Both the position numbers and the translations under genes were made by a program. Under the pieces are notes generated by a model. It saw nothing but the letters and a program-made list of their open reading frames with translations, searched no databases and was not told the origin of the DNA. From an uncultured virus (IMG/VR IMGVR_UViG_3300020180_000001) (Duplodnaviria > Heunggongvirae > Uroviricota > Caudoviricetes): 33,396 bases of DNA. The DNA lies in IMG/VR virus record IMGVR_UViG_3300020180_000001. One strand, 5' to 3'. This document shows positions 2,389 to 29,416 of the stretch, piece by piece. Position 1 is the stretch's first letter. Each line of letters opens with the position of its first letter.

Positions 2389-2396
2389 TAAACAAC

Positions 2397-2429: not shown

Positions 2430-2443
2430 CAATTTTAATAACA

Positions 2444-3959: not shown

Positions 3960-4438
3960 TCCTACGAACTTACAATCAAAGTACGTATTTCTTATTACCA
4001 GCTGCTGATATAGTGTTGCCTAAGGCTCATAAAGAGTACTTACTCAATACTTATATTACGACTGATAGTCAACATCTTGTTGTGTCAACACGGCAAGGTT
4101 ACTTAGAAATAGACGCTACGCTTCGTAACATTCCTTCTTTTGTACAGTCTAATCAAGACAAAGAAAGTATACAGTATTTCTACAAAATAAAAGAGGAACT
4201 TAAACCTACCGTAGTGCAGCCGTTTCTAAACGGGAAATACTCTGAAATTGATAAAGAGTATATTAAGGATTCGTTCGCTGAAAATTCTGCAGTGCAACGA
4301 ATAGTATCTAAAGACAGTGCATATAGAACACATTGGGAATCTCTAATAGGACAACCTCTTCCGGATAACGCCGAAGTTTGGCCTATCGCGGATTTAAAAC
4401 AAGAATTATGGGACAAATTGATAAGAAGTCAGCACTAG
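3956..4438 (+). CDS. Phage hypothetical protein
   Basis: 160-aa ORF with an ATGA overlap to the exonuclease stop; contains FLNGKYSEI. Confidence 0.7.
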   Translation: MILRTYNQSTYFLLPAADIVLPKAHKEYLLNTYITTDSQHLVVSTRQGYLEIDATLRNIPSFVQSNQDKESIQYFYKIKEELKPTVVQPFLNGKYSEIDKEYIKDSFAENSAVQRIVSKDSAYRTHWESLIGQPLPDNAEVWPIADLKQELWDKLIRSQH

Positions 4439-4713: not shown

Positions 4714-4929
4714 ATGGATATCATCAAGGCAAAAAGAACAAAATCTGGTAATTACCGCGTCTACGGCCAGTTCGGTGTATACGGGCAAGTAGGCACTCCC
4801 GCAAGAGTATGGATAGGAACTCCTGTGAACGAAGGGCCTTTATATGCAGATTCAATTATCAAACTCCGCGATGCACGCGGTTACACTATCGAAGTGTTTG
4901 CTGGAGAAGCAGGACTTCAATTTGATTAA
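4714..4929 (+). CDS. Small hypothetical protein (ORF track start TTG 4681)
   Basis: ATG at 4714 lies just after the hairpin in an AT-rich leader; MDIIKAKRTKSGNYRVYG... Confidence 0.65.
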   Translation: MDIIKAKRTKSGNYRVYGQFGVYGQVGTPARVWIGTPVNEGPLYADSIIKLRDARGYTIEVFAGEAGLQFD

Positions 4930-4946
4930 TCACAACAATAAAAAAA

Positions 4947-6984: not shown

Positions 6985-9900
6985 CTAACGAGAGGTAGTA
7001 GACGATGGTATTAAACCGAAGATTAGTCCATCTTCGGATGTTTTTTTACTATCAAATAAATCTAATATAGCATTTGGATTGCCAAGTATAGGAACTGAAG
7101 ATAAAAGTGTTTTGGAACCTTTATAAGTACCCTCTGAGGTTTTCTTTAGGGAAGCAAATTCAAAGAATGCTTTTCCTATTTTGGATACTCTGTCTGCAGC
7201 GACAATAGGCTTCTCTATGGTAGATAGTACGTCTTTAGGTAACAACCCGAGTGAAGAGTCTTCTACTAACCTTCTGAATCGAAAGGCTGCGTAAGTATCA
7301 TCATCATCGTCATCAAAAGCAGCAGAGTAGATTAAAAGTAACATTGCAAACCACATTGCTGTGTTAGCAAGTTCTACAAGTCGTGATACTCTGTTTGTTT
7401 GCTCTAATGTTCTATTACCTCTTGTACCGTAATATTCTTTACCACGTAAACCAAGTAATACTTTATCTATCCCCTGAGCAGCAAGAAAGCCGGAGGTAAG
7501 TACGGACAAGCGTCCTTGCATAACCTCCTCTTCCCATTTAAATACCGGAACTCCGTCAGGTCTGTTTATGTTTTTATTTAAGACATACCTTCCTACTGTC
7601 GTGTCCTTATAAGGAGACGCGTACAAGGTTTTCATGTACGTATAAAAGAACTTCTTAAATTGAATTAAGAACTCTCCTAATACGGTAACTTCGAGAGCAG
7701 TTTTTTCTTCCTGACGATAGGAACCATGTAGTTTTTCGTAAGCACGTTTAAGATTCTTAATTTCAAAAGTATCTAATTCATTTAAGGTTTTAAATTCCCC
7801 GGGGGCAACCTCTACCTTACCACGATCTCCTCCTGTCCAGTTGCCTTCTCTGTCATATAAGTCCCAAAGTTTCTTTTTGCCATCAGCAGTATCCACTTTA
7901 ATGGAGTTCATCATTATACCTAAGTGTGTTAAAGCACCGTAAGATTCTACGTAATTATGAAACATGAAAGCAAAGGAAGATAATCCTTTTTGAGTAGTAT
8001 CATATAACAGATCCTCTTTATTGTCTCCATAACCATAATTATCAGGCATCCAGTCAAACTTTTTAGCAATATTCCATATCTTGGATTTCTCAGGAGTTCC
8101 GAGCATACTGTTCTTTAGATAGTCAGCATAGGCTGCAAAGCCAAATGTAACTGCTCCTTTAGAAACTTTAACATCTTCAGGGTCAACTCCTGCTATGGCA
8201 GCCCATACGTACTTGGTAGAGTTCATAGCATTGGTTATAGTAATAAGTCCGGCATTAAATGCTGCACCCACTACCTTAAAGCCCATTACTGAGTACGATA
8301 CTCCTGACTTCAATACTCTAAGTAGTTTATCCTGATTTATCTCAATAGGAGAATCATTACCAAAGAATTTATTTGGAGGAAGGATGATAGGAGATTTTTT
8401 AAATCTTATTTCCTTAGGCCGTTTTAATATTTGGTTATGAATAGTGTCATCGACAAACCTGGCAAGATTATCTTTATTCTTACGGCCTGCTTCATCAGTA
8501 GATAATTCATAGATATTTTTTAAGCCTTCTGCTAAAGTGTACATGTCATCCATGTACTTCTTAGTAATCATATTACCGGTAAACTTTCTAAATGCGTCGT
8601 GAACGTTGTAAGAGTGATTTGCTGATTGAACATTCTGAGATCCGTAGTGAGCGTAGTATTTAACCGGAATACCACCTTTATCTTCAGAGTAGTAATTACC
8701 TTCTATGAAGTTTGATAACGTTCTCTTAGTCCAGTTTTTAACTCGAGTTCTTATTCCGAAAAGATTAGCGGTATAAGACTCTTCTAATCTGATCTCATCG
8801 ACCTGCTTAGGAATCCGAGGTAAGAAATCAGAAGGTAATTCGGTGGGAAGCCCTGATGCCTCAGCCTTGCTTATTTGCTTTCTACCAGAGGCACTTAGAT
8901 GAGAGGGTGCTCGCATGGTCGAAGAGTATACCTCTGCCAGGGAGGCTTTAATGAAGTCTCTGTATGCTCTCTGAGCAGCACTCAAAGTCTTCATACCGGA
9001 ATTAGACAAGTAGACATCGCTATTGTTCAGATAGTCACCATCTTCCTTCTTAGTCCACATAAAGTCAAATACGTCTTTCGGAGACTTCTTAAAGTTACGA
9101 GTAATAATCGAACTGACTATTGCAGTACCGGCAGCAAAGAAAATGTTACCTGCGATTGCTGCTCCTCCTATAAGGACAGTCTTTATAATATTCCCCATAG
9201 TAACTCCCCTGCCATCATTAGCCCCTACTTCTTTTAAGACTTCAGCAAGTAACTTGGCTTCTTTCTCAGCATACTCATCGTATTCTTTTTTAGCCTCAGA
9301 CTTTGCTTCTAATAACTGCTGATGAAAAACTTGAAACTTAGAGTCACTAATATCAGACATATTTTTAATGGAGCCTAAGAATCGATCTATATCTCCGGTA
9401 TCTCCCTGTAAAGAAGTCCCTGGCATTTTAGATAGTTCTAATCTAAGTTCTGCTAATGCTGCTCTTTGTTTTTTAATTACATCAGATTCAGCATCAATAG
9501 TCTCCTTAGATTTCCCTAAGGTTAATTCATTAATCTTATTCTCTACCCATTGTAATCTTTGTGGGTAAGGTAATTTCCCTAATACCGCCTGGTATTTAAC
9601 TATCTGAGAGTTAAGACCAATGTACTCTTCTTCTGAAAAGAGATTTTTCTCGACCAACTTCTTGTAAGCAGCAGGATGCTCTTTCATATAATAGTTCTCG
9701 GCTAATTTAAGAAATGGTCCTAAATCTAAATCAAATGCTTTATGATTCGCACTCTCTGAATTATCTATCTTGATGATTTTAATTGCTCTAAACTTAGCGT
9801 TAGGTAGTTTTTCTTTAATAAGTATTGCTCTTAATGCTAATTCAAGATACGCTTTATTAAGTTTAGAGTCTGTTATATTTAAATCCTTTGAGTAAGCCAT

Positions 9901-11412
9901 CAAAGTATTTACATCTATATCAGATACTATATTACCAGTTTTATAGTCTACTAATGTTAACTCTCCGTTAGGATGGCGTATAAGCCCATCCGCAGTAGTA
10001 ACTAAGGGTAAGCCTTCGGGAGTAAGCAATAACTCGCTCGCAAGGGTAAGTTCGGGAAAGAAAGTGTCAGGAATAACATTCGGACCAGAAATTTCCTGAG
10101 GAGTAATTCCGGCTAATTTAAGAATTGACAGGTAATCATTCTTGATTATCGTTAATTGCTTTACCTCATCAATAGTCGATGCTCCTAACTGCTTAGCATA
10201 TAACAAGGCTTCCTGCAGCAAGATATTCTTACGGGCAGGATCCGTTTCTGTAAGATGCGCTAAGTAAGCATGCTGTGCTTTACCTATTATTCTATTCTCT
10301 GAACGAGATGTAGATATGTATTCAGTATACTCATCTAAGGTTAAACTTAACTTACCATTGTCAACTACTATATTAGCATCCTCTCGTAACCCTGCCTGAG
10401 CAAATTTACGCAAGGCAATTTCCCTATCAGATAATAATTGCTTTCCTTTATATCTGACAGAGAATACACCAGATTCTCTATCTCCTACAAAATAAGTCAT
10501 CCTCATACCCACCTTGTTCCCATTCTCATCTAAATAATAATTGGACTCGTCCGAAGTAGTCAGTTTGGTAGCCTGCTCCTGCAGTAGTTTTATACTATCT
10601 ACGTCTACTCGTTCTCCTGCTCTGTTTTTAAATTTGCCATCTATCCCTGTTAAAATTTGATTAACGAGTTGATTAGCAGTAGTAAGTGTATTGTCAGTAA
10701 TCTCTACCTTCCCTGCTAAGATATCAAGGATAACTTTCATCTTTGTGTAAGGAGAAAGATCCGATAAGTTTACCTTATAGTTTTTAAGAAAAAATGATTT
10801 GACAAAGTCAATAAATTTATTTAGGTAAGAAGAGGGCTTTCTACGTACTGCTGCTTCTCCTAAGAACTGAGTAAGGGCTTCCTCCGCATCCTCAATGTTA
10901 TTAGTGTTCTGAGCATAGACAGCAAGATTTGCAAATAGGTTAGGATTCTCTACTTTTAGTGCTCTGACGAATGGATGAAAGTATTCATGAAAAGGAGTAT
11001 CATTTGTGGCATGAGCAGTATTTACATAAACTCTGCGAGATCCATTTTCATTAGCGTAATAGCCTCTCCTTGCATCATTAATATCGGAGTACACTTCATA
11101 AGGTATTCCGAATCTACTTGCCAGGTCTTCTAAGACAGAACCAAATTTAGGTGTCTCTGCAGAGCGAGGAGGTACTTTATTTAAAATCGCAACTGCGATC
11201 TGGGTAGCAGGTAAATCTCCATACCTGTCTTGGTAAGCAGATAGATTTTGGCCGACTTCCATCTCTATGCTACGAAAATTGGCTAACCCCCCCTCAATGG
11301 GGGAGGAAGCCGTCAAGTTACTTTCGTTTACATAAAGATGATGTGCAGTTACTTCTCCGTATTTAGATTTGTAGTCTAAGTATTCTTTTGAATTTTTAAG
11401 CGCACAAGTCAT
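6985..11412 (-). CDS. Large putative virion cargo protein: zincin-like metallopeptidase, PD-(D/E)xK nuclease domain and transmembrane helices
   Basis: VYVN...DTPFHEYFH...EEAL (HEXXH at 10975-10989); GKAQH...E...TADGLI...VDYKTG; hydrophobic segments VLIGGAAIAGNIFFAAGTAIVSSII and AMWFAMLLLIYSAAF followed by DDDDDD. Confidence 0.8.
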   Translation of the reverse strand: MTCALKNSKEYLDYKSKYGEVTAHHLYVNESNLTASSPIEGGLANFRSIEMEVGQNLSAYQDRYGDLPATQIAVAILNKVPPRSAETPKFGSVLEDLASRFGIPYEVYSDINDARRGYYANENGSRRVYVNTAHATNDTPFHEYFHPFVRALKVENPNLFANLAVYAQNTNNIEDAEEALTQFLGEAAVRRKPSSYLNKFIDFVKSFFLKNYKVNLSDLSPYTKMKVILDILAGKVEITDNTLTTANQLVNQILTGIDGKFKNRAGERVDVDSIKLLQEQATKLTTSDESNYYLDENGNKVGMRMTYFVGDRESGVFSVRYKGKQLLSDREIALRKFAQAGLREDANIVVDNGKLSLTLDEYTEYISTSRSENRIIGKAQHAYLAHLTETDPARKNILLQEALLYAKQLGASTIDEVKQLTIIKNDYLSILKLAGITPQEISGPNVIPDTFFPELTLASELLLTPEGLPLVTTADGLIRHPNGELTLVDYKTGNIVSDIDVNTLMAYSKDLNITDSKLNKAYLELALRAILIKEKLPNAKFRAIKIIKIDNSESANHKAFDLDLGPFLKLAENYYMKEHPAAYKKLVEKNLFSEEEYIGLNSQIVKYQAVLGKLPYPQRLQWVENKINELTLGKSKETIDAESDVIKKQRAALAELRLELSKMPGTSLQGDTGDIDRFLGSIKNMSDISDSKFQVFHQQLLEAKSEAKKEYDEYAEKEAKLLAEVLKEVGANDGRGVTMGNIIKTVLIGGAAIAGNIFFAAGTAIVSSIITRNFKKSPKDVFDFMWTKKEDGDYLNNSDVYLSNSGMKTLSAAQRAYRDFIKASLAEVYSSTMRAPSHLSASGRKQISKAEASGLPTELPSDFLPRIPKQVDEIRLEESYTANLFGIRTRVKNWTKRTLSNFIEGNYYSEDKGGIPVKYYAHYGSQNVQSANHSYNVHDAFRKFTGNMITKKYMDDMYTLAEGLKNIYELSTDEAGRKNKDNLARFVDDTIHNQILKRPKEIRFKKSPIILPPNKFFGNDSPIEINQDKLLRVLKSGVSYSVMGFKVVGAAFNAGLITITNAMNSTKYVWAAIAGVDPEDVKVSKGAVTFGFAAYADYLKNSMLGTPEKSKIWNIAKKFDWMPDNYGYGDNKEDLLYDTTQKGLSSFAFMFHNYVESYGALTHLGIMMNSIKVDTADGKKKLWDLYDREGNWTGGDRGKVEVAPGEFKTLNELDTFEIKNLKRAYEKLHGSYRQEEKTALEVTVLGEFLIQFKKFFYTYMKTLYASPYKDTTVGRYVLNKNINRPDGVPVFKWEEEVMQGRLSVLTSGFLAAQGIDKVLLGLRGKEYYGTRGNRTLEQTNRVSRLVELANTAMWFAMLLLIYSAAFDDDDDDTYAAFRFRRLVEDSSLGLLPKDVLSTIEKPIVAADRVSKIGKAFFEFASLKKTSEGTYKGSKTLLSSVPILGNPNAILDLFDSKKTSEDGLIFGLIPSSTTSR

Positions 11413-14400
11413 TAGCAGGTTTGGTTATATAGGTCATCAAAATTATCGTCGGTTAATTTATTAAATATGTTAGTACCAAAGACTTTAATATAATTTTTAT
11501 CTAATATTATAGCAGTTATTTTTCCAAATACATACGCTCCTTTAGAGTTCTTACCTAATTGAAGTATGTCCCCCATAGAAAAATTACCTTTTACATAGGG
11601 GCCTTTTTTGTCGAGTTGGTAAGAAGATAATTCTCCTCTTACGTCTTTCCTGTATTTCACTACGTCTAAAGGGCTTTCAGCATCCAGAATATAATCTCTA
11701 TAACCTGTTTTGTCATAGAGTGCCTGAGCAATAATTATAGCGCTCTCAGGAGCCGTTTGGTACAACTCTGTGAATATGTCCTCGCTTACAACTATTTTCT
11801 GTAAAGCCTCTATCTGGGCAAGCGCTGAGGAGGTTGTAGTGAGATCTAATCTGATTAAGTTTTTGTGTTGAACATTGCTGGAATGTAATCCTAAAAGATT
11901 ATTCTCGCTAACGTATTCAATAAGAGAGGCTACATCAGAAGCACTTTTAATTTGTATTGGAGCACTTGCCGCAGTAGGAGTGTTAAAATTAATAACTTCC
12001 TCCTTTTCAATTGTGTAAAAGATTTTACTTTTTAGTGTTCGTACGGAACTAATCTTACTCTTGGTCATATGTAAAGGAGCACCATTCTTATTATCAAGAA
12101 GATATACTATATCATTTACATCATATACTGCTACACCCGTCTCCTGAACAAATTCTGTTTCCGAACGATTAGTGTATTTGTAATCCTGGATAACCGCTAA
12201 CTCAGGCTGCATGGCTTGAGAAGCATCGTAAATAGAAAATAAATCTTCAGATCTAAAATCATAATATTTAGATTTTTTCCCTGTCGTAAATAATCTGTAG
12301 TAGACAAAATCTGTATCACTACCAATCTTTTTGTAAGTATTTTCTCCGTAAGTTTTTATAATAGTAGGGTACGTAGAACTAACATTGGGGTACGCCAAGT
12401 CGTAGTGGAAGCCGTTTTTATTATCGGCATAAGTCTTAACCACAGTACCTTGAGAATTTAAGTAATAACTCGTTTGTTTGGGCTTGGGATAGGCTCCGTC
12501 CTTATCTTTGGAAACAAATTTAAGTTTGGCATTATTGTTTCTGATAAACTGAGGGATAAATCTATTCACTATTGATGTAGTACTCCCTAACGCATTTAAA
12601 GAGGCTAAGCGCTCGTCTAACTTCTGGGTAAGCCCTGCTATAAAAGCAGGTGGAAATACGCCTGAAATAGAAGTACGTCCGTACAGTAACCCTCTGTTAA
12701 CTACCTCGTATTTAAGAAAGCCTAAGGCAAGTTCTTTTGTTTCGGGGGAGTTATAGAGGCTTGCAAAATCTCTAATTAAAATTAGATCTATCTCTTCTTC
12801 ATTTGTTTTGTTAGCAGTCAAAGCCAGAGTCTTCGTAGAGTCACTCATCGTTCTTACTTCTAATGAATTTAAAAATACGTTAGATGGGTTTAATGCTGCT
12901 GCCTTAATTACTTTTAATACGAATTGTTGTCCAAACGCATCGCTGCCATACACTATTTCACCATTGGGTAATGTAAATGATAAGTTGGCATCTACATTTA
13001 AGTCAATAACATCAGATCCTAAATTTAAAATTAAATCTGCGGATAACATTTTAAGTACTTCCATAGATATTAAATGTGCATTTTCATTCTCATCTTTTGA
13101 GAAACTAATGGAAACTTTACGTCCTACTGCTTTAGCAAGATTTACTATTTTGGGTTTATAGATATCTATTACTTCTTCTAAAGAAGCATATACTGCTTTG
13201 GAAGTTTCCACTGCTGCTTTTATATTAGGGATTTTATCAAGTTTTACGTTAGTAAATGTTTCATCGACTAAAGACTCTTCATACTTTTCTAATGCACTTC
13301 TGAGTTTCCAGCCCTCATTTGAGATGCCTTTAAGTAAATTGATTGGTCGCGAATTTCTGAATAAAGCGTTTCCTATACTGGATAATTTCTTTATCTCCTT
13401 CAGAAGAATAATCTTATTTAACACCCGTGCCTTTTCAGACCCGTTTCTAAGAACCTGGGTAGACACAGAACCTTTGATCAGTAAAAGGCTTACTAATTTG
13501 GAAGTTATAGTCTTATCTTTAGAAGTACCTGCTTTATCCATGATCTCGCTGGTAATTGAGCCTGAGTAATCTAACTCTCCTATTACATCCAGATAGTCCC
13601 CGGTTACAAGTTGATCCAAACGGCTCATCTCCAGATCAATGTCTTCCTCTTGGAATGATAAACCTTCCAGTTCTCTGAACATTAACATTACGTCAGTAAA
13701 GGGTATTCCTATGGCAATAGCAGCAAGATACAGGCTGGCGTTTTCATTTGTTATTGCCAGGAAAGGTAACTTCTGCTCTTTCGTATTATCTATTGCAAGG
13801 TTGAGAGCAGTATCTAAAGTTTCAAACGTATTAACCTTACGATACCCTTCATAAACCGGTCCGGACTTAGTTAATTCTTCCCGGGAAAGGGTACTATATA
13901 CGTGCTTATCAATCTTCACCCTTGTATTTTCATTTAACGTAGGTAATTCTCGCTGGAGTACCTCCACATTAAAGTCAAAATCAACGAGGGCTTCCAACGA
14001 AGAAACTCCATAGAGAGCGAGTAACTGTACCGTTTCTAAAGTACCTTTATCGTAGGTTATCTTATTAAGTTTGATCTTAGTTATCGGAGTACCACTATAC
14101 ATATACCCCAGTACCTTAGTAGTTGCTGCTGTGATCTCGGTAAGTTTAATGCCGGAATAAGTATTTTGATGAATCTTAGATTGCACTAAGTAGTCAGTTA
14201 AATTTCCTTTTGGGTATAACTCTTTTTCTACTTCTGCTAAAGTCCAGTATCCTTCTTTATTCGGGTTGGATAAAGATGCCAGTGTTTCCATTATAGATAA
14301 AGGAGAAGAAACGTAATCATACCTCGCTCTAATTCTTCTACCATTCTCAGTAATTTCGCTTACTATGCCAAAACCATTCTCTTCTACCTCTTTGATAAAA

Positions 14401-17400
14401 GATGCAGAAGTTAAAAATTCCTCCTCAACACCGGCTGCTTTTAAGTACGGAATTAAGGATTTAAACTTAGATATTAAGGCATTTTTAGTATCTCCCTTTG
14501 TCTTCTTAACTCGATCTAAAGTAATCGGAGTATTTAAATCATATCTATTTTTCCGATCTAATAAGGTTTTGGAAATAGTATGTACAATAGCATTGTTAGT
14601 TGCTTCTTTAGAGTACTCTAAGAGTAGGCTAATTATTGCACTTTTCTCTCCTACCAGTAAAGCGTTCTTTCCTTTTGACTGGAAAGTAAGAACGTTAATG
14701 TCAGCCAATAATTCCTTAACCCTATTGTTGATTACTTCTGACAATGTATAGTTACCTATTGTAATAATTTTGTCATCAACTCCAAGTGAAGTCCCTTTTT
14801 TAGCGATATGCTTAATACCGTAAGGATGTAAATTAACATCTTCCTTAAGTACTGCTTTCCTAATTAGGAACAGAGTATCTACGTCGAAGTCGTTACCTGT
14901 AATATATACCATCGCTGCGGGAGCGATTATTATATTGCCTAAGGATCCTTCAGGAACTTTATAAAAACCTTTTACTATTAATGACTGTGCTGAGTGCAGA
15001 TTAGAAGTCGGGATTCTAAATCCTACAATAGAATTTTTTACACCGACTACATCTCCTTCTGAAAATAAAGACCTGTAAGATTCTGGTAACAACACTTCTG
15101 TGTATCCGTCTTTATCTTTAAATTGTAATCTGGATGTCTTAGCCGAGTAAGTACCTACTTCCGTTTGTAGTACTAATTTAGATCCTGGTATACGAAACCC
15201 TACGGTCATTGACGAAGCAAGGGAAGTCAATAAAGATACAATCTTCTGATGTACCAAAGGAGCATTCAAAGAGACTCTTTGTCCGGTAGGAGATTTGAAT
15301 CTGAGTAAACTATTTACATGGGTTGTAGAAGGAGATGATTCTGCTTTTTGTACAATCAAATTTCTGACCTTCTTTTTAGTATTTTGAGTAGGTAGATTGT
15401 CTTGCAATCCTGCTTTAATATTGTATTCTAATAATCCTGTCCGAATCTGGATAGCATTTAACTTGTGTAGTATAGTTGTCTCAGTTTCGTTTTTACCGTT
15501 CGTGTTTAACATAGCAGTTACCTGCGAAGGGTTAGATACGTCTACGTCCACCTCTTTAGCAGGGTTTAATTGAAACCTAAAAAAAGAAGGATCAATACTG
15601 ACTATGTTTTCTGGTAGTAAACCGTTACCTCCATTAATCAAATCATTGCTAACAACTGCAGGTTTGGACGTAGAACCTAACTTAAAGGCTGATGAAAAAA
15701 CAGCAAGGCCAACATTAGTTTGCTCTAAGTCAGATCTTAAATTGCTAAACAATTTAATTCTTTCTTCTCCATCTTTAAGATTTCTAAGCCCCTCTAAAAA
15801 TTCATCTGATATAACTGTGATAGAAAATTTAATAAGTTTTGGTTCACCCTTTTCGCTCTGGTAGTAAATAAGAGGTTTGAGTACTACGTCAGCACTTGCT
15901 TCCGCACCTAAAGCATTGGAAAATGCTTCATACATAGCAGGAGTAGCCAATCCCTGAGCATCTGATTCTTCAAACTCATCTTGGAAAGATGCCGGTCTGT
16001 AATCCTTTAAGTAGTCAGGTAAGGTACCTACCACATCTTCTATTACAAGAACTTGTGAATGAAGAGGATTATCTCTTGACAGTCCAAACTGACTATCAGC
16101 TAAAGCAATATCCCCGGAACCGGTAGCAGATTGTATTCTCTTTGTCTCATCCTCCTTATTTTTAAAGAAGACTTCATCCCCGTAAATTAACTGGGAAAGA
16201 GAATATTGATTTACAATATGATTCTCATAAAAATGGTAATACAGTTTCCTTACTACTGCTTTCAAACCCTTCTCCTGGATGTCTTTCGCGTCGCGTAGTT
16301 CAAATTCGGAGTCCGTATTATTAGGATCCTTACGTCTTCTGAGTTCTTTTAACTTAGCAGTAAATTTAGAATCAGAAAGATAGTCTTTCTCAACTATTTC
16401 AAAGAGTTTAACGGCTGTATCAATTGTGGTGGCATCGTATTTAATCCCCATACGTTCCGCTTCTTCAAAGGCTGCTAAAGACATAGCCTCAATATGCGCA
16501 TATACTTTGTCTACAACATCTTTGACATGAAGACCCGAAACGTCACCACTTAAACCAGGAAAAGTAAACTTGTTTCTATTCTTAGCATAGTTCTTATTTA
16601 ATGGGTACTCTGTAGCCGGAGGTCTGTCCATCTGTGCTTTTATTATAGTTGTAATCTCTTCTCTGAGATCATAAGAAACAGCGACTTCTAAACCCGATAT
16701 AGTAGTACGACTGGAAGGGATAGGCAAGAACTGATAGTAAGATTTTTTACCGGAACTTTTTAATCGACTTAAAAATCCGTATTTAAAAGTACGTTCAAAG
16801 TAATGCCTTGGCTTTTCAGCAGTAAGTCCGACTGCATAAGACACAGTACCTGCACTTTTAATACCGTCATGCTGAATGTGACTAAATATGGGTTGCCAAA
16901 GAAACTTATTAGTCTCCAGTAGTTTACTCGTGGTAGTAAATCCCTTTTTCTTAGGAGTAAGATGGGGAAAGAATCCTTCTTTATTTAGTAAGTACGTTAT
17001 CAGAGAAGTTTGATAAGAAGAGTCTTTATAGAGATATGCTTTCCTGCCATCGGCTCTGATGAAGTTATTAACTTCTACTGCGGAAGAGGAAGAAGCCATA
17101 AGATCCACTATTAAGGATATTGTAGAACCTTCATCATTAATACTATTAAACAGAGTCTCGTAATTAGCGTTCTCGTTATAAGAGATTTGAATGTTTTGAA
17201 GACGTGGCATCAGAAAGGATAACTGCCGGAACAAGTTATCCACAGCAGAAGGACCTAAATCTGATATAAAAGAAGCAGGCAATTTAATATTCGTCAAAGC
17301 CAACTTTATTATAGCCGCCTTAACAGATCTGTTTGGAGTAGCATCTTTTTCACCGGCAGTGAATGACACCCTGTTATTAGCGGTAAATATAGGTACCTTA

Positions 17401-20400
17401 GTTATCAACCTGTCTAATAAAGAAGAGATTATTTTATTCTCTAAGATAGCCTCTTTTCCTGCAACGTTGTTCGGAGAGTATGTAGTTCTATATTTAAAGT
17501 TTTTATATTGCTGCACCGCTACAAAAGGATTTCCTCTGGTAAGTGATCCTATAGCACTAACAATCGATTTAATAAAAGTTAGATCTTCAAAACTTTTAAA
17601 TGAGTAATCGTAAGACTTCTTATAGTTGGGAAAAGTTTTAACCCATTCTGAAATACGTTGATTTTCAGGCTTAACAAATATCTGAAACAAAGGATTATCC
17701 CTTGCTAAACTATACGTTATACCTCTCGTACTCTCGGTAGAAGAGTATACCGCATACATAGTAGGGAAATTAACATCCTTATAAAAGGTTACTGCATCAC
17801 TGGAGTTTTTAATATTCAACTCGCTGGAATCAATAGTATTGAGTATAAACTCCGCTGCTGCTTTACGAACGTTATTAGGAATAATACCGGGAAAAGGAGA
17901 GCCTATCTTCTCCATAGTCCGTTTCTTTATTATAGTAAAAATCTCTGGTAAAGAACTGTTAGGAATGTCACTTAGTATAGGAAGTAGCGCATTAAATATC
18001 CCGAAAAAGTCTCCTTGTACTACTGCCCCTTTAGAAGTGTATTTAGTCAGTACCAATCTCTGCTTGATTCGTCCCGTAATCTTATCCAAAGGATTAAACA
18101 AGTCAGATTCAAAAGTCTCTTCCGCAATAGATGCGTTCACACTTTCGATTGCTGAATCTAAATCAGTATCAACTTCATTTGTTCTGGATTCTACCAATTC
18201 TTGTAACTGGTCTTCTAAGGCAGCGATTTTAACAGCCTTGGAATCCTTATTATTTACAGTCTTAAAATACTTTGCAATAAAGTCTTTTGAGGTATTGGAT
18301 TTACGATCTAATATGGGAGCGATGGCTGTTTTGTATAATTCAAATTCATCTCTTCCAAATTCAATTCTTCTGGTAATAAACATATTATTTAGAAGATCGA
18401 AAGTATCTTCTAAAGCCTCGTCAAAGGAAAGTATTTCTTGTGACCCATTATATACATTGTCAAAGGTCTCTAAGAATAGTGTCTTGGCTCTTGTATACAA
18501 TTCTACGGTGGGCCATTTTTCAGCCAAATTTCTTTCTAAACTAAAACTGTTGTTTTCCTTACCACTTACCATCCCGGAAGACAGTTCATCGAAGAACGCA
18601 TCAATACTCTCTATGTTATTATAAACAAAACCGAAGAAATTAAGAATCTTCCTAAACATCTCATATAACTTACCCGAGAAACTTTTAGGTTTTGCGACAT
18701 AATTCATGAACCCGTTAGCAAGGTCTTCTTCTAATTCTATAGTACTCTTATTACCGTGCTTCGCTCTTGCTAAGTCTAATAAAGTAAGTCTTTCTATTGC
18801 AGTTAAGTAATTCCAGAAAACTTTATGGAATGCTTCGTGCTTAACTACTTTAGATTTAACACCATCTTTATCTTCTATTACATAAACTATACCATTCTTA
18901 AACAACCCCCAGTTGTTCTTACCCAGAGAGTGTTGCATCTCCAGAGTACTTATGATGCGGAAATAAGGTTTAGACTTCCTTTTAAAAGCGCTTTTCAAAC
19001 GATCTAAGAGAGTAGGGGATACTATTCTGTTGTAAAGAGCCTTTGCTTCAGCAGGAGTCAAATTATCCCCTAATTCAGTTGCAGAACTTCTTTTTAAGTC
19101 TCTGCTTATCGGATTGAAAAGAAGTTCTTCTAACCGGTGTATAAAGAACGGAAGACTGTCCTCATCCTCTAAAGTAGCAGTATAATACCCAGACAGTTCT
19201 TGATCAGCAATCCTGTCTACTAATTCTTTTACCGCGATTTTAGTATACCACTCGGTATCCATCTGATTAATATTCTCACCCTGGTTTTTAAATACCATTA
19301 GTTGCTCAGCAAGACTTTTCCCCTCTGTACTTTTAATGATCTCTTGTTTGGAGAGTTTTCTAAGAACTTCTACAATTGCTTCTACTCGTTCTAATTTAGT
19401 CTTTGCTTTTTTCAAAGTTAGATTGTTCTCCTCAGCAATACCCATGATAGTTCCTTCAAGTCCTACTAATCTAAGTTCTCCGTCAGGAGTAAACATGTTC
19501 TCAAAAGATAGTATAAGAACTTCGTCTAATACCAATTTAGCATCAGTCTTAGTTGCTTTAGAAATCCAATACTTCTGTGCTTGCTTTACCAGTTCGTCAG
19601 CGGTAAGACTGTCAAAGAGCATAGACAATACTACTGCTCGTAAGTAGTCTCTTGGGGCAGGCTCTGTTACACCTTTAACCTTAGTATACGATATTGCATC
19701 GTTTGACATTTCGATTGCATTGTATAACTGTTCCTTCAGAGTAGGTAGTTTTAAGTTTTTACGAACCAATGCTGCAATGAGAATACTACGTGTGGCATAG
19801 TATAGATCTTGTTGACGAGCAGATACTATCTTAGGGATATCAACTTCTACCCCATATTTAGATGCTATCGATTTGACTAAATCAGCGTTTATTTCTTTCA
19901 GACTATTAATCTCGTTATAAAACTTAATCATAGGAGTTTTAACTGCCGTAGGGACATCTACGGTGGTCTCTCCTGCTACGGGGTTGGCAGTTAAACTAAT
20001 CCGGGTAGGGATAACTCTTTTAAACTGAGTCTCTACGAATCCCATTAATACCTGATCGGCAATAGGGGATTTAGGCTCGTCGGTAACTTTGTCTACATTC
20101 TTGAATGCCAGGAAAGAAAGAGGCATTCTTAATCCAAATCCGTTACCAACTCCGGATAACTTATTATCCTTGTCCTGAGAATCGATAAATAAAGATTTAA
20201 GTATTGCTAAAGACAAAGGCTTTAAGTGAGCATCATATTTAGACTCCACTGCATCAATTATAGATTTTAATTGAAGGCCCATAGAACTCTCTTGTTTATT
20301 ATTAGCCTCTAATCGAGCATACTTTGCTTTTAGTTGACTTTTAGCGGCTTGGGTAAGAGGTGGATTAAGTGAACTCCCTAATTCAGTTTCAAAGTTGGGT

Positions 20401-23400
20401 CTTCCACCTAAAGGCATACCTACGCCAACTGCTTTATCACCCTCTTGAGAATAGCCGGGGTAATCACGTAAAATCACCAACTGTCCTGTAGGCAGGGTAG
20501 TGAGATAGTTTGTAGCCGCTATTCTATTGAACGCTTTTTGGGCCTTACCCTTGTACTTACGAATCCTGCCTCCATTAGCCTTTCTTACGGGAATATTTTC
20601 CTCGTTGAGACTCTCACCATGCAGTAGAGAGTCTATTTCATTGGCACTCTCAGCAAGTCTCTGTACGTCTAAATACTTTAGATCATGTAATACAGCAGCA
20701 GGATACTTAGCCCTCAGCATTGTATTTAACTCTTTAGAAGCAACCTGAATAACCGGGTTTGCCTCTCCATTTAGATAACGTAAGTGAGCATCACTCAAAG
20801 CAGCAATAAACGCGGCATAAGGGTAGTACTTATTTCTTTGATCCTGAGGATCAACTAATTTCATGTCTATGGTTGTATCCATAGTCATTCCGGCATAGAT
20901 AGTATTTTTTAATTCCTGGTGCTGAAAACTCATCTTCTCAAACGCCTCTGTGAGTTCTATGAACTCATATATGTTCTGCAGCCCTATCTTTTCAGCAGCG
21001 TAAGAACCTTGCTGAATAATTGCGGGTCTGTGAATAATATGAAGAGGTTTAATTTCTCCGGAAACAGTACGTAATCCTTGTATCCTTAGATAAGGTACAG
21101 ACGGCCTGATCAAAGGATCATTCATCTTTTTAATCTCTGCTTCGGAATATAAAACTAAACTAACGTAAGGTCTTTGATTTGAATCAACTCCGCTTAAATT
21201 TGATAATACCTCATCTTTGTTTACGATGTAATTATTATCTAATTCGCTTAACTGGTTTATATATATCTCAACCAATTCTCCATAACCATTTTCAGTATAG
21301 TCCCATGTAAAGTTAGGATCATAAATATGTTGTAACCTTTGAGAAGGCCCTATATAAGTAGTAGCAAATTCGAGTGCGGGAGGGATGATGTAATAATGTA
21401 CATCTCCGTCAGTAATCTTCTGTAAAGCCGCTGAGGGTAACGTAGTAATTTTTTGTAGGAAATCCGGTAAAGATTTAACTTCTTCATCTGATAACACTGC
21501 TACTTCAATATGTTTATCACCGTATAACTTAGTAACAATATAACGAGTTCCTTTTGCAGATACATCCTTATATATTCTTACTTCATCCCCTACATTTAAT
21601 ATTGCTGTTCGGAAAACAAAATTATTAGGATGCTTTAGAAGAAGATCCTTATCATTAATAGTAATGTCATCCACAATATCTTCATACTCTTCGAGCGAGT
21701 CAACTTGTTCGACAAACTCATCTTCCAAGTCGGAATCCTCGTCATCGGCTTGTTCTGTTGCTATACGTATGGCTACAACGTCATCAAGAACCTCTTTCAC
21801 TCGAATATCTACCGACGCAGTATCACGTACCTTATTCTTAGAGAGGTCTCTTAAAGTACGTAATTGTTTTACCAGGTCTAACACTATAACTTCGGTTTGT
21901 TGGAGCAGTTTCAGGGCTGCTGCATCTTGAGCAGGTGTAATCTCAACGTTATTGTCTGCGGGGTGCGAATCAAGTTCGTCAAATGCGTACTCTATCTTTT
22001 GAAGTAAACTTTCTAACTGTTCCGGAACAACTTCTTCTAATTCTGCTGACAGTTCGTCAATTTCTATTAGTGTTTTTTTAATTGAATCTCCTGTCTCAAC
22101 CAGTTTAGTCTTTACGTCTATATCCTCTAATGCTTTATCCTCTGATGCTTTATCCTCTAATGCTTTACCCTCGAGTATAGATTTCAGGTTAACGAGTTCT
22201 TGGTCAATCGCCTGATCTTCTTTCTCCACCATACCCTCGAGTATAGATTTCAGGTTATTGAGTTCCTGGTCAATACCCTGATCTTTTTTCGCTTCTTCCT
22301 CAACTGCAGTGATTTCAGGAGGTGTATTATCGGCGGGTGGTGTATTATCTTTTGGAACTTTAGTATTAGCATCAGCAGGAGGTGTATTATCTTTTGGAAC
22401 TTTAGTAGTGTCTGCCGCACGGGCAGTACCGGAATGATAAAACCGATCATAATCAGCAATCTGTTCCTTCTTAGTTGTTATATGAGTATCAAACTCTAAG
22501 GCAAAGACTTTTGAAGCCAATAGAGTTTTAATAGGGATATTAACATCGACATCATTTATTCCGGCAGTAGAGGTAGAATAGATAAATAACCTTGCTCTCG
22601 AGTAAGCAGTGTACATATCCTGATTATACTTAAATGCGTTGGCTTGTTTTGGTAAGTCTATATAAACTTCATCAAAAGATTTACCAGCCACCTCCTGAGG
22701 AGTAGCAATAGTGACATCGGGAAAAGAAGCCGCATAACTAACTTTATTTTCGTTAGTCGTTATAATCACTCTTGTTCTTCCGGGGTTTAGTTTTTGCGAT
22801 AGTCTCACCTTTTCTGAGATGGAAGTAACTGCGGAATTAGGAGATAATTTAGAAGTGAATACTCCTTCTATATCCTTTAAATCATCTATTGATTTAGATG
22901 TAGCAGACTTAACAAGAGTTACCTCAGAAGAAGATAAGAACTGGTTCATAGATGCCCCTATTTCGGCTACATTTGACCTGTAAGACACTGAAATCGGAGA
23001 GACTGATGTTAGGTTATGTATCAATGGAAGAACTCCTGTGGGGCCGGGTAACAAGCCTTTTTGATAAGTAAGTATAATCTTGATATCTGCGGGAGTACCA
23101 ATACCTTTCTTTACTTTATCTAACGCAGCAACATAAATAGTATCTTTTATAGGAGTGAAGGCATCCTGATCTAAAGTAGAAGAGCCATAGGTAGTATTGC
23201 CAGATTGATTAGGATCATACACTAACCATAGTTTATAATTCTTATCCTGGTTCTTAGTTTGTAAATCAGCAAATGCTCCTAAGATGTTGTATAGTAGTTT
23301 GGTATTAACTGCTGCTGCTTCATCAAGAATAAATAAAGTTACATCGTCAGGAACACCTTTTTGAAGAGTCTCTAACAGATTCTCCGCAGTATGTACGGGG

Positions 23401-26400
23401 TAAGGAGACCCCGTTGCTTCTTTAATAGTCTCTGCTGCAAGAACCTTATTGCCTGCTGCTAAGATATTCTTAGGCTGTAATCCCAGTATTGCTAAAGCAG
23501 TGGGTACAATCACTGTGGATTTGCCTGCTCCTGCGGGGGATCTGATTCCAATTACATTTTGAAATATATCAGGATCTTTAAATGAATTGGTAGACGTTAA
23601 ACTAACTAACTCCTGTACTAATCTTTGCTGTGATATAGTAGGAGGAAAGGGAGGTGTTTTGCCTGCGAGTTTATCTGCTTTTGATTGTTGTAGTAGTTCT
23701 AATCCACGAGTCAGTCCCAACCTCGCAGTTAAAGGAGAATTTTTATGGGCAACATATAAAGAAGCAGCGGCTACGTTTGCGTACATCTCAGCAATCTCTT
23801 TATTAGTAAACTCTTTAAAACTATCCGGAGCCTCTAACAGAGTAGAGACAGACAGAGTTTTAGCAAAATCATCAACTGCCTGGGGATTGGTTCTCGTCGT
23901 ACGCTTATAACTATTAAGGAACTCATTTAAAATATATGGGAAGAACTTAACCGGGTTAGTACCTAAGAACTCGAAGTCTGCTCTTGTAAGAACGTTCTTA
24001 GTAATATTAGGGTACTTTCCAATCATCTTGGAGTACATAGCATATACTACATCTATATGCTTAGTTAACAGATCATCCTGTTCATTAGGCAGGTCTAATA
24101 AGACTGCTATCGCCGTAATAGGGTCTAAAGTAGACAGGGCAGTTGTTTGTACGTCAGTAAGAGGTAAAACTCTTTGTAAAGCCATTGCTATCTGATCCGT
24201 ATCTTTCACATCTCGTAATTCTTTATTAGTAAGATTGTCATATACTATTTCACGAAAGGCATTCAAATCTGCTAACATAGACTTCCCGTCAAACTTATCA
24301 TCTAACCTGTCAAGTTGAGTTATATTATTAATCTCAAAATCAATCGAAGTGATGTCATTAAAATTATCTAAGTTCTCATTTGAATTAAATGTATCGACAA
24401 GTTTTTGAGCGCCTACAGTGAGATGATCAATTACGCTGAAATCATCGACTGCAGGTAGTTCTGCCTTAAGAGCATCCCATCTAAGATTTCCTTCGAGTAA
24501 CTTTGAAGACTCTGCTTTAAGTTGCTTATAATACTCAACCTGTTTAAGTAAATCACCCAATTGTTTAAGTTCTGCATCTCCATAGTCATCATAGTCAATA
24601 GTAGTTTCGTAGTTGTCAACTGTAATATCAAGATTACTGGTTTTAAATTTTTTAAACTCCTCGTTGATATACGCGGCAGTCTCATTTAGCGTAATCTCAA
24701 CCTGGTAAATGTAAGTTTTAAGTAAATTTACTGTATCAGCAGTAAGTTTCAAACTATTTGAAAGTACCCTTTCAAGAAACTGAGTTAACTGAACTACAGT
24801 GGAGAGTATATCAAGCCCTCCCTTAGATATGAGTTCATTGATAAGATCTGAGGTTACACTTGCAAGTGCATTTTTTCTACGTGCAATTTGACCTAAATTT
24901 CTGGTAAGGAGTTCGCGATATGCTTTATAAACTTCCTTAGAAGTATCCGGGGTAAGAATCATTCTCGAAGGAATAAGGCTTCTGTCAACTGCTTTGGGGT
25001 CTCTGGCTTTCCATTCTTTCCTCTCAAGAATAGATGTAACCTCATCTGCTAACTTGGCACGCGAATCTATTAGAAAATCAAGGTCTAATTGGGCATTAGC
25101 ATAAGGACGAAATTTATTATTCTTAACCTGATCATCCAGATCTTTAAAACTAAGTTCCCGATTAAGGTCTGCTTTAATATCTGCAATAACCTCATCACTA
25201 AGATTAGGGGCAGATAGTTCATTGAACAACGCCGAGATTCTACGCTCTCTTTGATATGGGGCTAAGGGAGTGTCTAAAGCATCTTTAATAGTAGTTCTAA
25301 TATCATTAACCTCTTCAGATTTACGCTGTATCAAATCGTCAGCAGTGAGAAGTTGATTAACTTTACTATAATAGGCTGTTCTACGTGCCTGGTTATCTTT
25401 AACGGCTTCGGCTGAGTTAGAAGATGGTACAAAATAGTTTTCACCTGTTTGATAGGCTGCTTCTAATCTTTTTACGAAGGAGTTCATGTACTCTATTTCT
25501 TTTGTCGCCTCTTCTCCACCTGCAAACGCTTCAGGAGTAGAAGTAAGTCTGCCTAACTGCTCAAAAAGAATATCAGTAGTGCCGGATTCAAAGGCGGTTA
25601 CAGCCAATTTAGCAAGGAGACTATTGCGGTATAGAGTCAATTTAAGTTTGTCGGGATTCTCTTTAGATTGCTCCTGTTTAATAAGATCGGATAATTCTGA
25701 CTGCATAGAAGCATCAATACCCAATTTAGAAAGTGCTATGGGGTCTATCATCAAATTCCCATCAGGATCGTATTTATAATCTCCTCCCTCTGTGTAATTT
25801 CCTCCAGTCTCGGGAAGATTGTGTTTATCAGTTAGTGCCTTAAAATCTAATTGGCTAATCTCATCTTTGGTTGCTCCCTCTTTAAAAAACTTAGGGCTTT
25901 CGGGAGGACCTTCTACTGATAACTTAGTAGTTACTACAGGATTCTTCGCGGCTATACCATTATCTACTAAGTCAGTATACCGTTTATTATAAGTTTCAAT
26001 TGCTTTTGACTGCTTGCTACGATACTCTCTTGCCTGCCCGACTGCTCCCATAACTCCTTCTTTAGAAGGGATAAGATTAGCAGCGGCTGAAGCAATACCT
26101 CCAATTAAAGCACCTAATCCAAAAGCCTTACCTCTCTCTTTATCCATAAGATTATAGATCTCCAGAGTAGTAATATCTTCTAATACTTTAGCACCGGAGT
26201 CTAAGAAGCCTCTGTGCTTTTCATCTATATAAGCCGCTTTCTGAATAGAGTACTGAATAGTCTCTTCTGTACCTTCTGCTAACACCTGCTCAAGTATAGA
26301 TGTAGTTACTCTTCCTGCAGTGTTACCTTTATCGAAGAAGAAGTCTTCTATACCGGATAATGCTTTCTTCTGAATAGTGTTATCCGTAGCAAGTTGCAAT

Positions 26401-27323: not shown

Positions 27324-29416
27324 TATTCTATAGGTGTGTTTTCTTCTTTATCTCCTGATCTTTTATTTACAGGAACGTTCATTCGTGGACGAATTAAAGG
27401 CTCTATGTTAGCAGGACTCCATTCGTAGGGTTCACCAAACTCATTTAGAGATGTAAAGTAATCGATGTTATCTGTATCAATTGTTGTGGTGGTTAGATCT
27501 TTTCCTAAAGGATCTAAGTAAGGAGATCTTGGGGTAGTAGTTGTAGTTGTACCACCAAAAGGGCTTTTCATCGCTACCTTTGGGGTTCCGTCACTATTCT
27601 TGCCTCTGTATGGAGCATATCTAACCTTAGGTGTTAAGTTTCCTGTTTCAGGATTGATAATGTAATCTTTAATACCTATTACCTGTATTCTTGAATTCCC
27701 GTCAAATACTTCAAACGGTTCTGAATATTTCTCATCAGCGGCTATAAAACCAAACGCTTTCTTACGAGTACTGTTATTGTACTGGTTCATACGTTCATTA
27801 TTATCTCCCATAATATAATAACCATTCTCACCTGGAATGGACATTACAGAACCTACTATAGTACTTCCTGTTTGAGAAGATGATTTTCCTAAAACTGATA
27901 CGTTTGCTTTACGGGTTTTAGCATCATAATGAAGAGAGTACAACTCTCGTTGCTTTGCAGCAGATACATCACTAACCTGACCTGTGTTAGAATCTACAAA
28001 CTGTACAGAGAGTTGTCCTGTGGCCATCTTAGGGAAGTTTACATCAGCATCCCTTTTCATTGCTTCAGGGGTCTCATAAGCATGATAATATATCCCTACT
28101 CCGTAATCATCTTTTTGAAGTCCGGTATTATACAGTTCCCATTTCTGAGAAGCAGTTTTGTCAGGGTAATTCTTTACTACTGCCTGAAGCAGGGTAGTAT
28201 TAACTTTTCCTTTATACTTAGCAGGGGAACTAAGAATATCAGCAATATCTACTTTTTTGATACCACTTACGTTACGTTGCATCAATGTAATATTCGCAGG
28301 TGCCCACGGCGAGTAGTCAAAGGTCTTACCAACGGGGAATTCGATCTCCTGACGAGTAGGGTCTACTAAAGGGTATTGACCAGTAGCATTTTGTCCTAAA
28401 GTAAGAAGACTTAGATTATCTGAATCTGTACCAGCGTCTTGGTTCTCTTTCTGTTTACCTCTTAACATTGCTTTGTGATCTTCCAATGCCATTCTTCCTT
28501 TCTGTTTCATAAGTTCCATTGAAACATCATTCTGAAATCCCTTATTAAAGGCATACATAGGATCCATCAACAATTTAATTTCATTAGTATCATTGAAGTT
28601 TCCAGAATAAGAAGGTACTAAGGCATCCACTTCTTTTTGTAAAGTAGTAGTAATGTAATCTAATCTATCCGCACCTTGCAGTCCCATTAATTCAGCATTC
28701 TGATTTAACAATGATAAATACTTAGGGTCTGAAACAAGCCTTGATGTAGCCGACTGGCGTAACTCAGCAGGGTCTACAATTTCAGTTTCTTTAGTAGTGT
28801 ATATTAATCCTCCTTTACCATCAGAAGTAGGGATAATAGATTTGGTCTTTCTTCTCGGCATTCCCTGCGCAAGTTTTGTAAGTTCTATAGAAGGATCTAC
28901 AAAGGATGCCAGATCAGGAACATTAATTAAATCATATTCACCTGTGTCGGAATCTGCAGCCCCTACTCCTTTGTAGTTAGTATTCACAAACTGATTCAAC
29001 AAGCGCAATTGATTTTGAGTAATATCTCCTTTTGCTAATCTTTCCTTATTAACTTTAGCAGCCTCCCGATAGATATTATAATTCTGCCTGATAGCGTATC
29101 CTTTACCACCAGGGGAGAGTTCTTTCTTCATCTTTTGCGTAAGATCTAAAACACCTCTCGTGATAGTAGAGTAATCAGTACCACTGTTTGAAACGAGAGA
29201 ATCTATTTCTGATTCCCATTGATTCTGAAGTTTATTTGCTTGTGCTCTGTCTTGTGGTAACGCATCTATATATTGGTTGCGAAGATTATTTACCATCAAG
29301 TGGTTTTCGTCAGAGTTTTGTTGGGCATTTGCTAACGAACGTTCAAAAGCCTGGAGGGGTGGCATTGAAAATTGAAATGTAGCCGGGGCTTGATTTCTGT
29401 AATATCTATTAACCAT
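27323..29416 (-). CDS. Putative virion cargo/ejection protein (697 aa)
   Basis: Lies between the tail and RNAP genes with coupled overlaps; N/Q-rich helical N-terminus MVNRYY...; no cysteine. Confidence 0.65.
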   Translation of the reverse strand: MVNRYYRNQAPATFQFSMPPLQAFERSLANAQQNSDENHLMVNNLRNQYIDALPQDRAQANKLQNQWESEIDSLVSNSGTDYSTITRGVLDLTQKMKKELSPGGKGYAIRQNYNIYREAAKVNKERLAKGDITQNQLRLLNQFVNTNYKGVGAADSDTGEYDLINVPDLASFVDPSIELTKLAQGMPRRKTKSIIPTSDGKGGLIYTTKETEIVDPAELRQSATSRLVSDPKYLSLLNQNAELMGLQGADRLDYITTTLQKEVDALVPSYSGNFNDTNEIKLLMDPMYAFNKGFQNDVSMELMKQKGRMALEDHKAMLRGKQKENQDAGTDSDNLSLLTLGQNATGQYPLVDPTRQEIEFPVGKTFDYSPWAPANITLMQRNVSGIKKVDIADILSSPAKYKGKVNTTLLQAVVKNYPDKTASQKWELYNTGLQKDDYGVGIYYHAYETPEAMKRDADVNFPKMATGQLSVQFVDSNTGQVSDVSAAKQRELYSLHYDAKTRKANVSVLGKSSSQTGSTIVGSVMSIPGENGYYIMGDNNERMNQYNNSTRKKAFGFIAADEKYSEPFEVFDGNSRIQVIGIKDYIINPETGNLTPKVRYAPYRGKNSDGTPKVAMKSPFGGTTTTTTPRSPYLDPLGKDLTTTTIDTDNIDYFTSLNEFGEPYEWSPANIEPLIRPRMNVPVNKRSGDKEENTPIE

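Follow-up and report, generated by a model that had tools for sequence, protein, structure and literature searches.

Why should two giant viral proteins that are almost free of cysteine each keep exactly one, and keep it at the very ends at which their genes meet? The question is raised by a stretch of 33,396 nucleotides from an uncultured virus of the Caudoviricetes (IMG/VR record IMGVR_UViG_3300020180_000001), the whole of which is referred to here as the window. Two adjoining genes on its minus strand encode proteins of 5303 and 1475 amino acids (aa) that resemble the cargo and RNA polymerase proteins of crAss-like phages; the sole cysteine of the first is its last residue, and that of the second is residue 3. 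Comparison with relatives confirms this observation and extends it to an order-wide rule. Strong selection maintains both terminal cysteines in proteins that are elsewhere purged of this residue; wherever a chain is newly broken both ends carry one, and where the pieces are fused both are gone. Such a pattern speaks for a pairing of the two termini that serves a function, and from the sequences compared we judge it probable, with considerable doubt left, that the cargo proteins are held head-to-tail by an inter-chain tether, which is most likely a disulfide. The matter bears on how crassviruses, the most abundant human gut phages, pass an RNA polymerase of several subunits through a channel of <50 Å.

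Five consecutive genes lie on the minus strand of the window, and four of them, encoding proteins of 480, 697, 5303 and 1475 aa, total two cysteines in 7955 residues. The gene of the 5303-aa protein (11412..27323, minus strand) ends in ...DDLYNQTC*, the TGC codon of Cys5303 occupying positions 11415..11417, and the gene of the 1475-aa protein (6985..11412, minus strand) starts with MTCALKNS..., the TGT codon of Cys3 occupying 11404..11406. The stop of the former overlaps the ATG of the latter as TAATG (11410..11414), so that the junction reads ACC TGC TAA TG ACT TGT on the minus strand. The C-terminus of the 1475-aa protein, the last link of the chain, is ..SSTTSR and holds no cysteine, and the translated 697-aa (27323..29416, minus strand) and 480-aa (29409..30851, minus strand) proteins contain none at all. 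The four cargo genes, with those of the 5303- and 1475-aa proteins given first, have 1, 1, 0 and 0 TGY codons in frame, as against 81/260, 24/76, 14/35 and 8/39 in their two other frames. Cysteine frequency is 0.025% in these four genes versus 1.0% (25 cysteines in 2488 aa) in nine other open reading frames (ORFs) of the window, and the depletion is selective. The sequence-only reading from which this work started had noticed the single cysteines at the adjoining termini and the TAATG overlap, both of which were confirmed by translation and counting and by re-translating each codon. It had also held chance placement to be unlikely, and this was borne out, because both cysteines are kept in relatives down to ~15-30% identity.

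In regard to these relatives, six of the seven homologues of the 1475-aa protein (33-100% identity) start with M-x-C and have no other cysteine. The gene call of the seventh (P0004, on DNA L057) is truncated because of an in-frame TGA, and its sequence, ...KSNKC* MVCPIKSSKE-TGA-KDLV..., also gives M-x-C after read-through. M1 and C3 are invariant when the N-terminal 250 aa of the 1475-aa protein are aligned with homologues. For the giant protein, an exhaustive HMMER search with its last 1000 aa gave 73 representatives, which in 125,956 residues contain 97 cysteines in total. A cysteine lies within the last 6 residues of 53/73 representatives, being the final residue in 40, and within the first 6 residues of 20/73. 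Altogether, 73 of the 97 cysteines fall into these 6-residue end windows, leaving 24 in 125,080 interior residues; the lack of internal cysteines that had been read from the window alone thus extends to its homologues, with an interior frequency of 0.019%. In ORFs of 150-1299 aa taken as controls from 14 named crassvirus loci, cysteine was found in the first 6 residues of 1/122 and in the last 6 residues of 5/122.

The same signal appears in the alignments. Among 11 sequences of the last 250 aa of the giant, sharing only 14-28% identity, the invariant columns are one glycine (G198) and the terminal cysteine (C250), and the C-terminal cysteine is nearly invariant in a further polymerase alignment. 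It is present in 48 of the 53 representatives of at least 800 aa, one of the five that lack it being a fused form (P0060). In 17 middle pieces of the polymerase (~27% identity) the C-terminal cysteine is invariant and Cys4 nearly so. By size, 17 of the 25 representatives of 1000-1700 aa carry cysteine at both ends, 7 at the C-terminus alone and 1 at neither, and 12 of the 13 giants of at least 3400 aa carry it at the C-terminus alone. Conservation extends to both free ends of the chain as well, because most proteins like gp65 of phage phi14:2, to which the 1475-aa protein belongs, end in arginine or lysine (..TSR, ..NNR, ..PKR, ..AQR, ..FFK; window 6985-6990 and P0001-P0007) and the giants start with M-P (MPQVDP, MPLIDP, MPELNP).

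Whether the two cysteines occur together was examined at gene junctions in 80 viral loci, which were fetched by polymerase motifs alone and kept from 410 detected relatives; a metagenome scan gave 4 loci. Junctions were defined as consecutive plus-strand ORFs of at least 400 aa, and the downstream start was taken, irrespective of cysteine, as the first ATG met from a point 40 nt ahead of the upstream stop onwards; the last 10 residues upstream and the first 6 downstream were inspected. Both cysteines are present at 48 of the 88 distinct junctions and both are absent at 39, whereas at one the upstream cysteine stands alone and at none does the downstream one (Fisher p = 2.7e-24, with related sequences treated as independent). 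Co-occurrence at adjacent cargo genes, which the sequence-only reading had proposed as a check, is therefore found with a single borderline case. Junctions with neither cysteine lie ahead of the chain, at the tail and small cargo proteins and at the N-terminus of the giant, and they include the 480|697 and 697|5303 junctions of the window, the 697-aa protein lying upstream of the chain.

Furthermore, the pair is found where the polymerase itself has been cut. When the break lies ~145 aa past the DFDxD motif, the upstream piece ends in cysteine and a new middle piece of 1100-1350 aa starts with M-x(1-3)-C, giving pairs such as ..LKYC*/MKVC, ..IQIKC*/MLNC, ..ICQ*/MPVTC and ..ICQ*/MSINC. At least four different split positions carry the cysteine pair, and the same solution has arisen at several independent split sites. 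At the nucleotide level the junctions are variable: the stop-to-start distance ranges from -10 to +28 nt at 31 paired junctions among the relatives of the window and reaches ~130 nt in Intestiviridae-like loci, so the gene overlap is not a conserved feature. At the 31 junctions the cysteine codons are TGT/TGC in 19/12 cases upstream and 27/4 downstream, an ATG stands 1-5 codons before the downstream cysteine in 31/31, the upstream cysteine codon directly precedes the stop in 16/31, and 30/31 end in TAA.

The assignment of the window to the crassvirus cargo and RNA polymerase module is based on motifs and blastp matches. The catalytic motif DFDVD lies at residues 4145-4149 of the 5303-aa protein (14877..14891, minus strand) and is shared by phi14:2 gp66 (1361), crAss001 gp50 (1483) and Carjivirus gp44 (1433), D-x-D-x-D being invariant in two polymerase alignments of relatives. 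By blastp, residues 33-475 match phi14:2 gp67 (E 7e-11), residues 2805-2876 match crAss001 gp47 residues 2136-2204, and residues 4017-4154 and 4850-4930 match crAss001 gp50, the former at its residues 1344-1492 (E 8.5e-10); Carjivirus gp44, cr50_1 and cr118_1 are matched in the polymerase-motif region as well. The matches to gp67, gp47 and gp50 are collinear, and by sequence comparison the 5303-aa protein is a fusion of a gp67-like (gp47-like) part with the gp66-like (gp50-like) virion RNA polymerase. Homology and synteny suggest that it and the 1475-aa protein are packaged in the virion and injected into the host as cargo of a crAss-like phage.

Terminal cysteine pairing recurs in 20 named genomes from the Steigviridae, Intestiviridae and Suoliviridae and from Flavobacterium phage Fpv1, a sampling that left out Crevaviridae and the epsilon and zeta groups. 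In phi14:2, gp67 (1797 aa) has its sole cysteine as the last residue (..NTIC*), gp66 (2180 aa) has only Cys3 and Cys2179 (MAC...QECK*), and gp65 (1421 aa) has only Cys3 (MSC). Likewise, crAss001 gp47 (2341 aa) has its sole cysteine at 2339, gp50 (2412 aa) has cysteines at 5, 1334 and 2404, and the sole cysteine of gp49 is at 5. Here gp47 is encoded on the strand opposite gp50 and gp49, ~11 kb apart, and in cr128_1, DAC15 and IAS virus the gp47-like gene is also on the strand opposite its presumed partner; the terminal cysteines are kept in all four. Because partners can lie on opposite strands and spacers vary, a nucleotide-level or translational cause is excluded, and the pairing is a feature of the proteins.

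The reverse case is offered by proteins in which the chain is not broken. In the window, neither the fused gp67|gp66 junction nor the fused mid-polymerase site contains cysteine. A 2810-aa ORF in locus L012, with no cysteine, aligns with residues 4133-4911 of the giant and then with residues 93-1475 of the 1475-aa protein, and P0060 (6148 aa), whose only cysteine is internal, runs collinearly through the two proteins. Complete fused giants of 6104-6557 aa, bearing HExxH, DxDxD and a second HExxH, are without terminal cysteine in 6/6 cases, and none has a cysteine at the position of the junction. The loss of the terminal cysteines where the genes are fused, anticipated by the sequence-only reading, is therefore seen in all six complete giants and in L012 and P0060.

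Taken together, these patterns would best be explained if the two surviving cysteines, Cys5303 of the giant and Cys3 of the 1475-aa protein, tied one chain to the other, most likely through a disulfide that forms once the virion is assembled or released. Separately translated pieces would then behave as one linear polypeptide, and the head-to-tail link would fix their stoichiometry. The linked pieces could thread the narrow tail as a single, partly unfolded chain and would be held together during refolding in the host, whose cytoplasm could reduce the link. The new ends of a cut chain begin as neighbours in the fold, and for this reason a cysteine on each of them can restore covalent continuity; a C-to-N link also keeps the product linear and is therefore compatible with threading through the tail. 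We infer the contact between the two cysteines, its disulfide nature, the timing of its formation and breakage, and its role in ejection. In a wider form, to which we lean a little more cautiously than to the tether itself, each gene cut (fission, inversion or insertion) in crassviruses and their Flavobacterium-phage relatives would be followed by cysteines on both new termini and by disulfide re-joining in the virion. An enzyme of ~0.7 MDa would thus thread the tail as one linear chain, a "post-translational polyprotein", to be freed or refolded as a unit in the reducing cytoplasm.

The two ends were also viewed in structure models. Residues 1-3 of the 1475-aa protein form a tip in front of a small helical bundle and are modelled at low confidence, for which reason this tip is probably flexible. 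Cys5303 comes directly after the last helix of a confidently modelled small domain, with a predicted local distance difference test (pLDDT) score of 74-88 over the last 55 residues. Co-folding of the C-terminal 250 aa of the giant with the N-terminal 250 aa of the 1475-aa protein, run without controls, scored 0.04 against a mark of 0.32.

Several points weigh against the proposed tether. Contact or oxidation of the two thiols is deduced from co-occurrence and conservation of sequences, and the C-to-N assignment of partners in three-protein chains from gene and split order. Phages are assembled in a reducing cytoplasm and many of the hosts are gut anaerobes, therefore a route of oxidation has to be assumed. 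The tail disulfides of crAss001 were seen in purified virions (PMC10172136). The Fisher p value overstates independence because related sequences were counted as independent, and the lone upstream-only junction (L144) is borderline, its partner having a cysteine at position 9. A partial exception is cr273_1, where the nearest cysteine of the 5794-aa protein is 49 residues from the C-terminus and the partner starts with MFC. Four representatives of at least 800 aa (P0046, P0053, P0070 and P0080), not counting the fused P0060, lack a C-terminal cysteine, and these may be truncated gene calls. Finally, small cargo proteins of the Intestiviridae have a near-C-terminal cysteine with no N-terminal partner among the cargo proteins; such single cysteines stand 1, 7 or 10 residues from the C-terminus in Carjivirus gp47 (L051:1551-4124), crAss002 gp30 (L052:1456-3129) and the 757-aa protein of Rudgehvirus (L068:1490-3763).

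These unpaired cysteines speak for a different reading, namely that each terminal cysteine binds a third partner, which might be a protein of the capsid, portal or tail, another copy of the same protein, or a small thiol. Structural proteins of crAss001 do use disulfides, which would suit such a role. However, C- and N-terminal cysteines are balanced at the splits, with the 48 and 39 junctions having both or neither, no N-only case and one borderline one, and the free chain ends, the MP... N-termini of the giants and the ...R C-termini of the gp65-like proteins, are without cysteine. The reading is weakened because a third partner would not demand a balance between N- and C-terminal cysteines, and we regard it as unlikely, if the best placed of the alternatives.

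It is also conceivable that the two terminal cysteines share a metal ion as a clasp, with the chains still tethered end-to-end. The same comparative evidence speaks for this as for the disulfide, and a metal bridge requires no oxidant in a reducing cell. A zinc hook or clasp would be recognised by two or more metal ligands on each chain, for instance a CxxC, but each terminus has one cysteine and no further cysteine, histidine or aspartate is conserved near either end. Only G198 and C250 are invariant in the last 250 aa of the giant, and after C3 the nearest invariant residue is Y64. The sequence-only reading had suggested a shared metal site with the HH of the nearby TAHHLY; this is unsupported because the HH is not conserved, relatives having AYHL, AYAV, AFAI or ALVK. 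A clasp therefore seems to us rather improbable.

A role apart from tethering, in redox sensing, in regulation of a self-inhibited polymerase or as a processing signal, carries similarly little probability. In its favour, gp66 of phi14:2 is translocated into the host, and the recombinant protein is described as self-inhibited, activation following translocation (10.1101/2020.03.07.982082). On the other hand, gp66 purified in dithiothreitol is active on single-stranded DNA (10.1101/2020.03.07.982082), and fused forms do without both cysteines, which ties their role to the chain break and not to the chemistry of the enzyme.

Two further readings can be given almost no credence. A nucleotide or translational signal, be it stop-start coupling or a ribosome hop between the cysteine codons as in T4 gene 60, might be suggested by the codons flanking TAATG in the window and by the stop directly after the upstream cysteine codon in about half of the junctions, but it is already refuted for non-adjacent pairs by the opposite-strand partners of crAss001, cr128_1, DAC15 and IAS virus, and spacers of -10 to ~+130 nt, an ATG that is always present and mixed TGT/TGC codons speak against it as well. 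Chance, or relaxed selection against cysteine at disordered termini that often tolerate substitutions, is already refuted by conservation: the 53 representatives with cysteine in the last 6 residues compare with ~0.08 expected at the interior frequency and ~4.3 at 1% cysteine, end windows hold most cysteines against the few seen in control ORFs, and the cysteine columns are invariant where their neighbours vary. Two other candidates were rejected. A split intein was set aside because the Pfam scan of the whole 5303-aa protein, taken in three pieces, and of the 1475-aa protein gave no intein or Hint family and the cysteines are on the wrong sides, and N-terminal lipidation because the sequences, read by eye, have no signal peptide or lipobox before the cysteine. 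The tether, with a disulfide as its most likely form, thus remains the reading that we prefer.

The rule proved useful for annotation, having flagged the start of crAss002 gp33, the truncation of P0004 and a hidden exon in L035 and L046. The crAss002 gp33 protein (at L052:12151-12260) fits the pairing only if its start is moved to M-S-C at codons 33-35; the annotated start (MVLDYSINI) is 32 codons before it, and the orthologues Carjivirus gp44 and cr3_1 start with MSC, which makes a wrongly called start probable. The C-terminal cysteine of L035 and L046 sits in a second exon behind a LAGLIDADG insertion. This intron-like insertion (L035:1155-2500, L046:1041-2404) holds a homing-endonuclease gene (Pfam 3.5e-22) and is located exactly in the polymerase catalytic motif, G-S-D | Y-D-V-D; introns in crassvirus polymerase genes have been mentioned before (PMC7886860). 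The gp55/gp56 junction of IAS virus (L054, NC_049978) is unreadable because of runs of N, 120 of which are clustered there in the fetched stretch, and junction A of L004/L045 is affected, like the N-terminus of P0004, by an in-frame stop. Giant genes contain in-frame TGA in L003, L004/L045, L040-L042, L046, L057, L099 and L117, and in-frame TAG in L063, L065, L069, L071, L072, L110, L112, L119, L129 and L134; a stop codon is therefore recoded in these phages, and standard gene calls are truncated.

Other features of the module were also recorded. In the 5303-aa protein, an SF1 helicase-like P-loop domain spans residues 1257-1578 (22590..23555, minus strand; Pfam AAA_30 4.6e-7, Viral_helicase1 7.9e-5). 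The 1475-aa protein had been labelled a nuclease and membrane protein; nuclease function is not demonstrated, and it is instead a gp65-like protein with a zincin-type motif, HEYFH, at residues 142-146 (10975..10989, minus strand) and two hydrophobic segments (residues 742-771 and 1348-1366). H142, E143 and H146 are invariant among its homologues, and its match to phi14:2 gp65 is weak (blastp, E 4e-4). Its N-terminal domain is modelled with pLDDT 81-93 over residues 141-220, and the best relevant Foldseek row was 4l7a, a putative zinc metallopeptidase (E 0.21), with none at E <= 0.001. A second, nearly invariant HExxH (RHExFHKVF) lies at about residue 2829 of the giant (window ~18836-18850), within the stretch that matches crAss001 gp47 residues 2136-2204, so that the module carries two zincin-type motifs. 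Searches of other kinds gave little: megablast and tblastn of the junction and the 1475-aa protein against a phage collection found no match, PHROGs and Pfam gave nothing beyond a sub-threshold DUF603 match for the 1475-, 697- and 480-aa proteins, a word-indexed search for which the giant's C-terminal region was the query brought back nothing but the protein of the window itself, and a sequence search of solved structures with the cargo proteins found no match.

As for the surroundings, the fifth minus-strand gene (30848..33328) encodes an 826-aa virion structural protein (PHROG 15100, 5e-20) that has seven cysteines and is outside the cysteine-purged set. Plus-strand genes at 2-4438 match DNA primase, endonuclease/Holliday-junction resolvase and exonuclease VIII families, a neighbourhood also found in Suoliviridae records. 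Thioredoxin-like genes are annotated in several crassviruses at no more than a few kb from the cargo module (L051:26941-28208, L060:9094-9339, L066:26659-26928 and L068:26780-27055).

Parts of the rule have precedents, and what is already known comprises virion disulfides and cysteine-purged ejection proteins; the cysteine pairs retained at chain breaks appear to be new. The literature search, largely outside subscription journals, found no earlier description of terminal cysteine pairs in crassvirus cargo, and in the available text of PMC10172136, 10.1101/2020.03.07.982082, PMC7886860, PMC10136315 and PMC13434306 the term "cysteine" has no occurrence. The closest system is the Crassvirales virion RNA polymerase module itself (phi14:2 gp67-gp66-gp65, crAss001 gp47-gp50-gp49), with the same DFDxD polymerase and HExxH gp65-like protein, an identical order of genes behind those for tail and cargo, and the same giant cysteine-poor proteins; in the window, unlike there, the gp67-like and gp66-like proteins are fused into 5303 aa. 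The cargo proteins are present in crAss001 virions and must partly unfold to pass the channel, and of their order of extrusion it is said only that it depends on packing and mutual interactions (PMC10172136).

In N4-like phages (Schitoviridae), the giant injected virion RNA polymerase and ejection proteins (N4 gp50, DEV gp71-73) are also almost cysteine-free, and this suppression has been attributed, as a proposal, to a disulfide-catalysing periplasm (PMC11445570). There, however, the few cysteines are put down to errors of annotation, and the available part of that account describes no terminal pairs, whereas crassvirus cargo retains one cysteine on each side of every chain break; the rule of no cysteine in injected proteins thus gains a precise exception. 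Virions of crAss001 hold inter-subunit disulfides in the tail and portal vertex (PMC10172136), found in the tail hub, the ring proteins and the gp57 dimer. Like the proposed links, these are covalent S-S bonds between separately translated proteins, but they staple a static tail and portal-vertex lattice, whereas the proposed ones would join mobile injected proteins end-to-end. T4 gene 60 bypass shares with our junctions the matched codons flanking a stop at a gene discontinuity, but crassvirus pairs need no adjacency and always have a start codon, and the two are not of the same kind. The most instructive comparison is with the fully fused polyprotein forms, single ORFs of the size given above with the same domains in the same order (HExxH, DxDxD, HExxH), the cleavage of which has been proposed (10.1101/2020.03.07.982082). 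In them continuity is provided by the peptide backbone and no terminal or junction cysteine is found, whereas the split forms would regain that continuity after translation.

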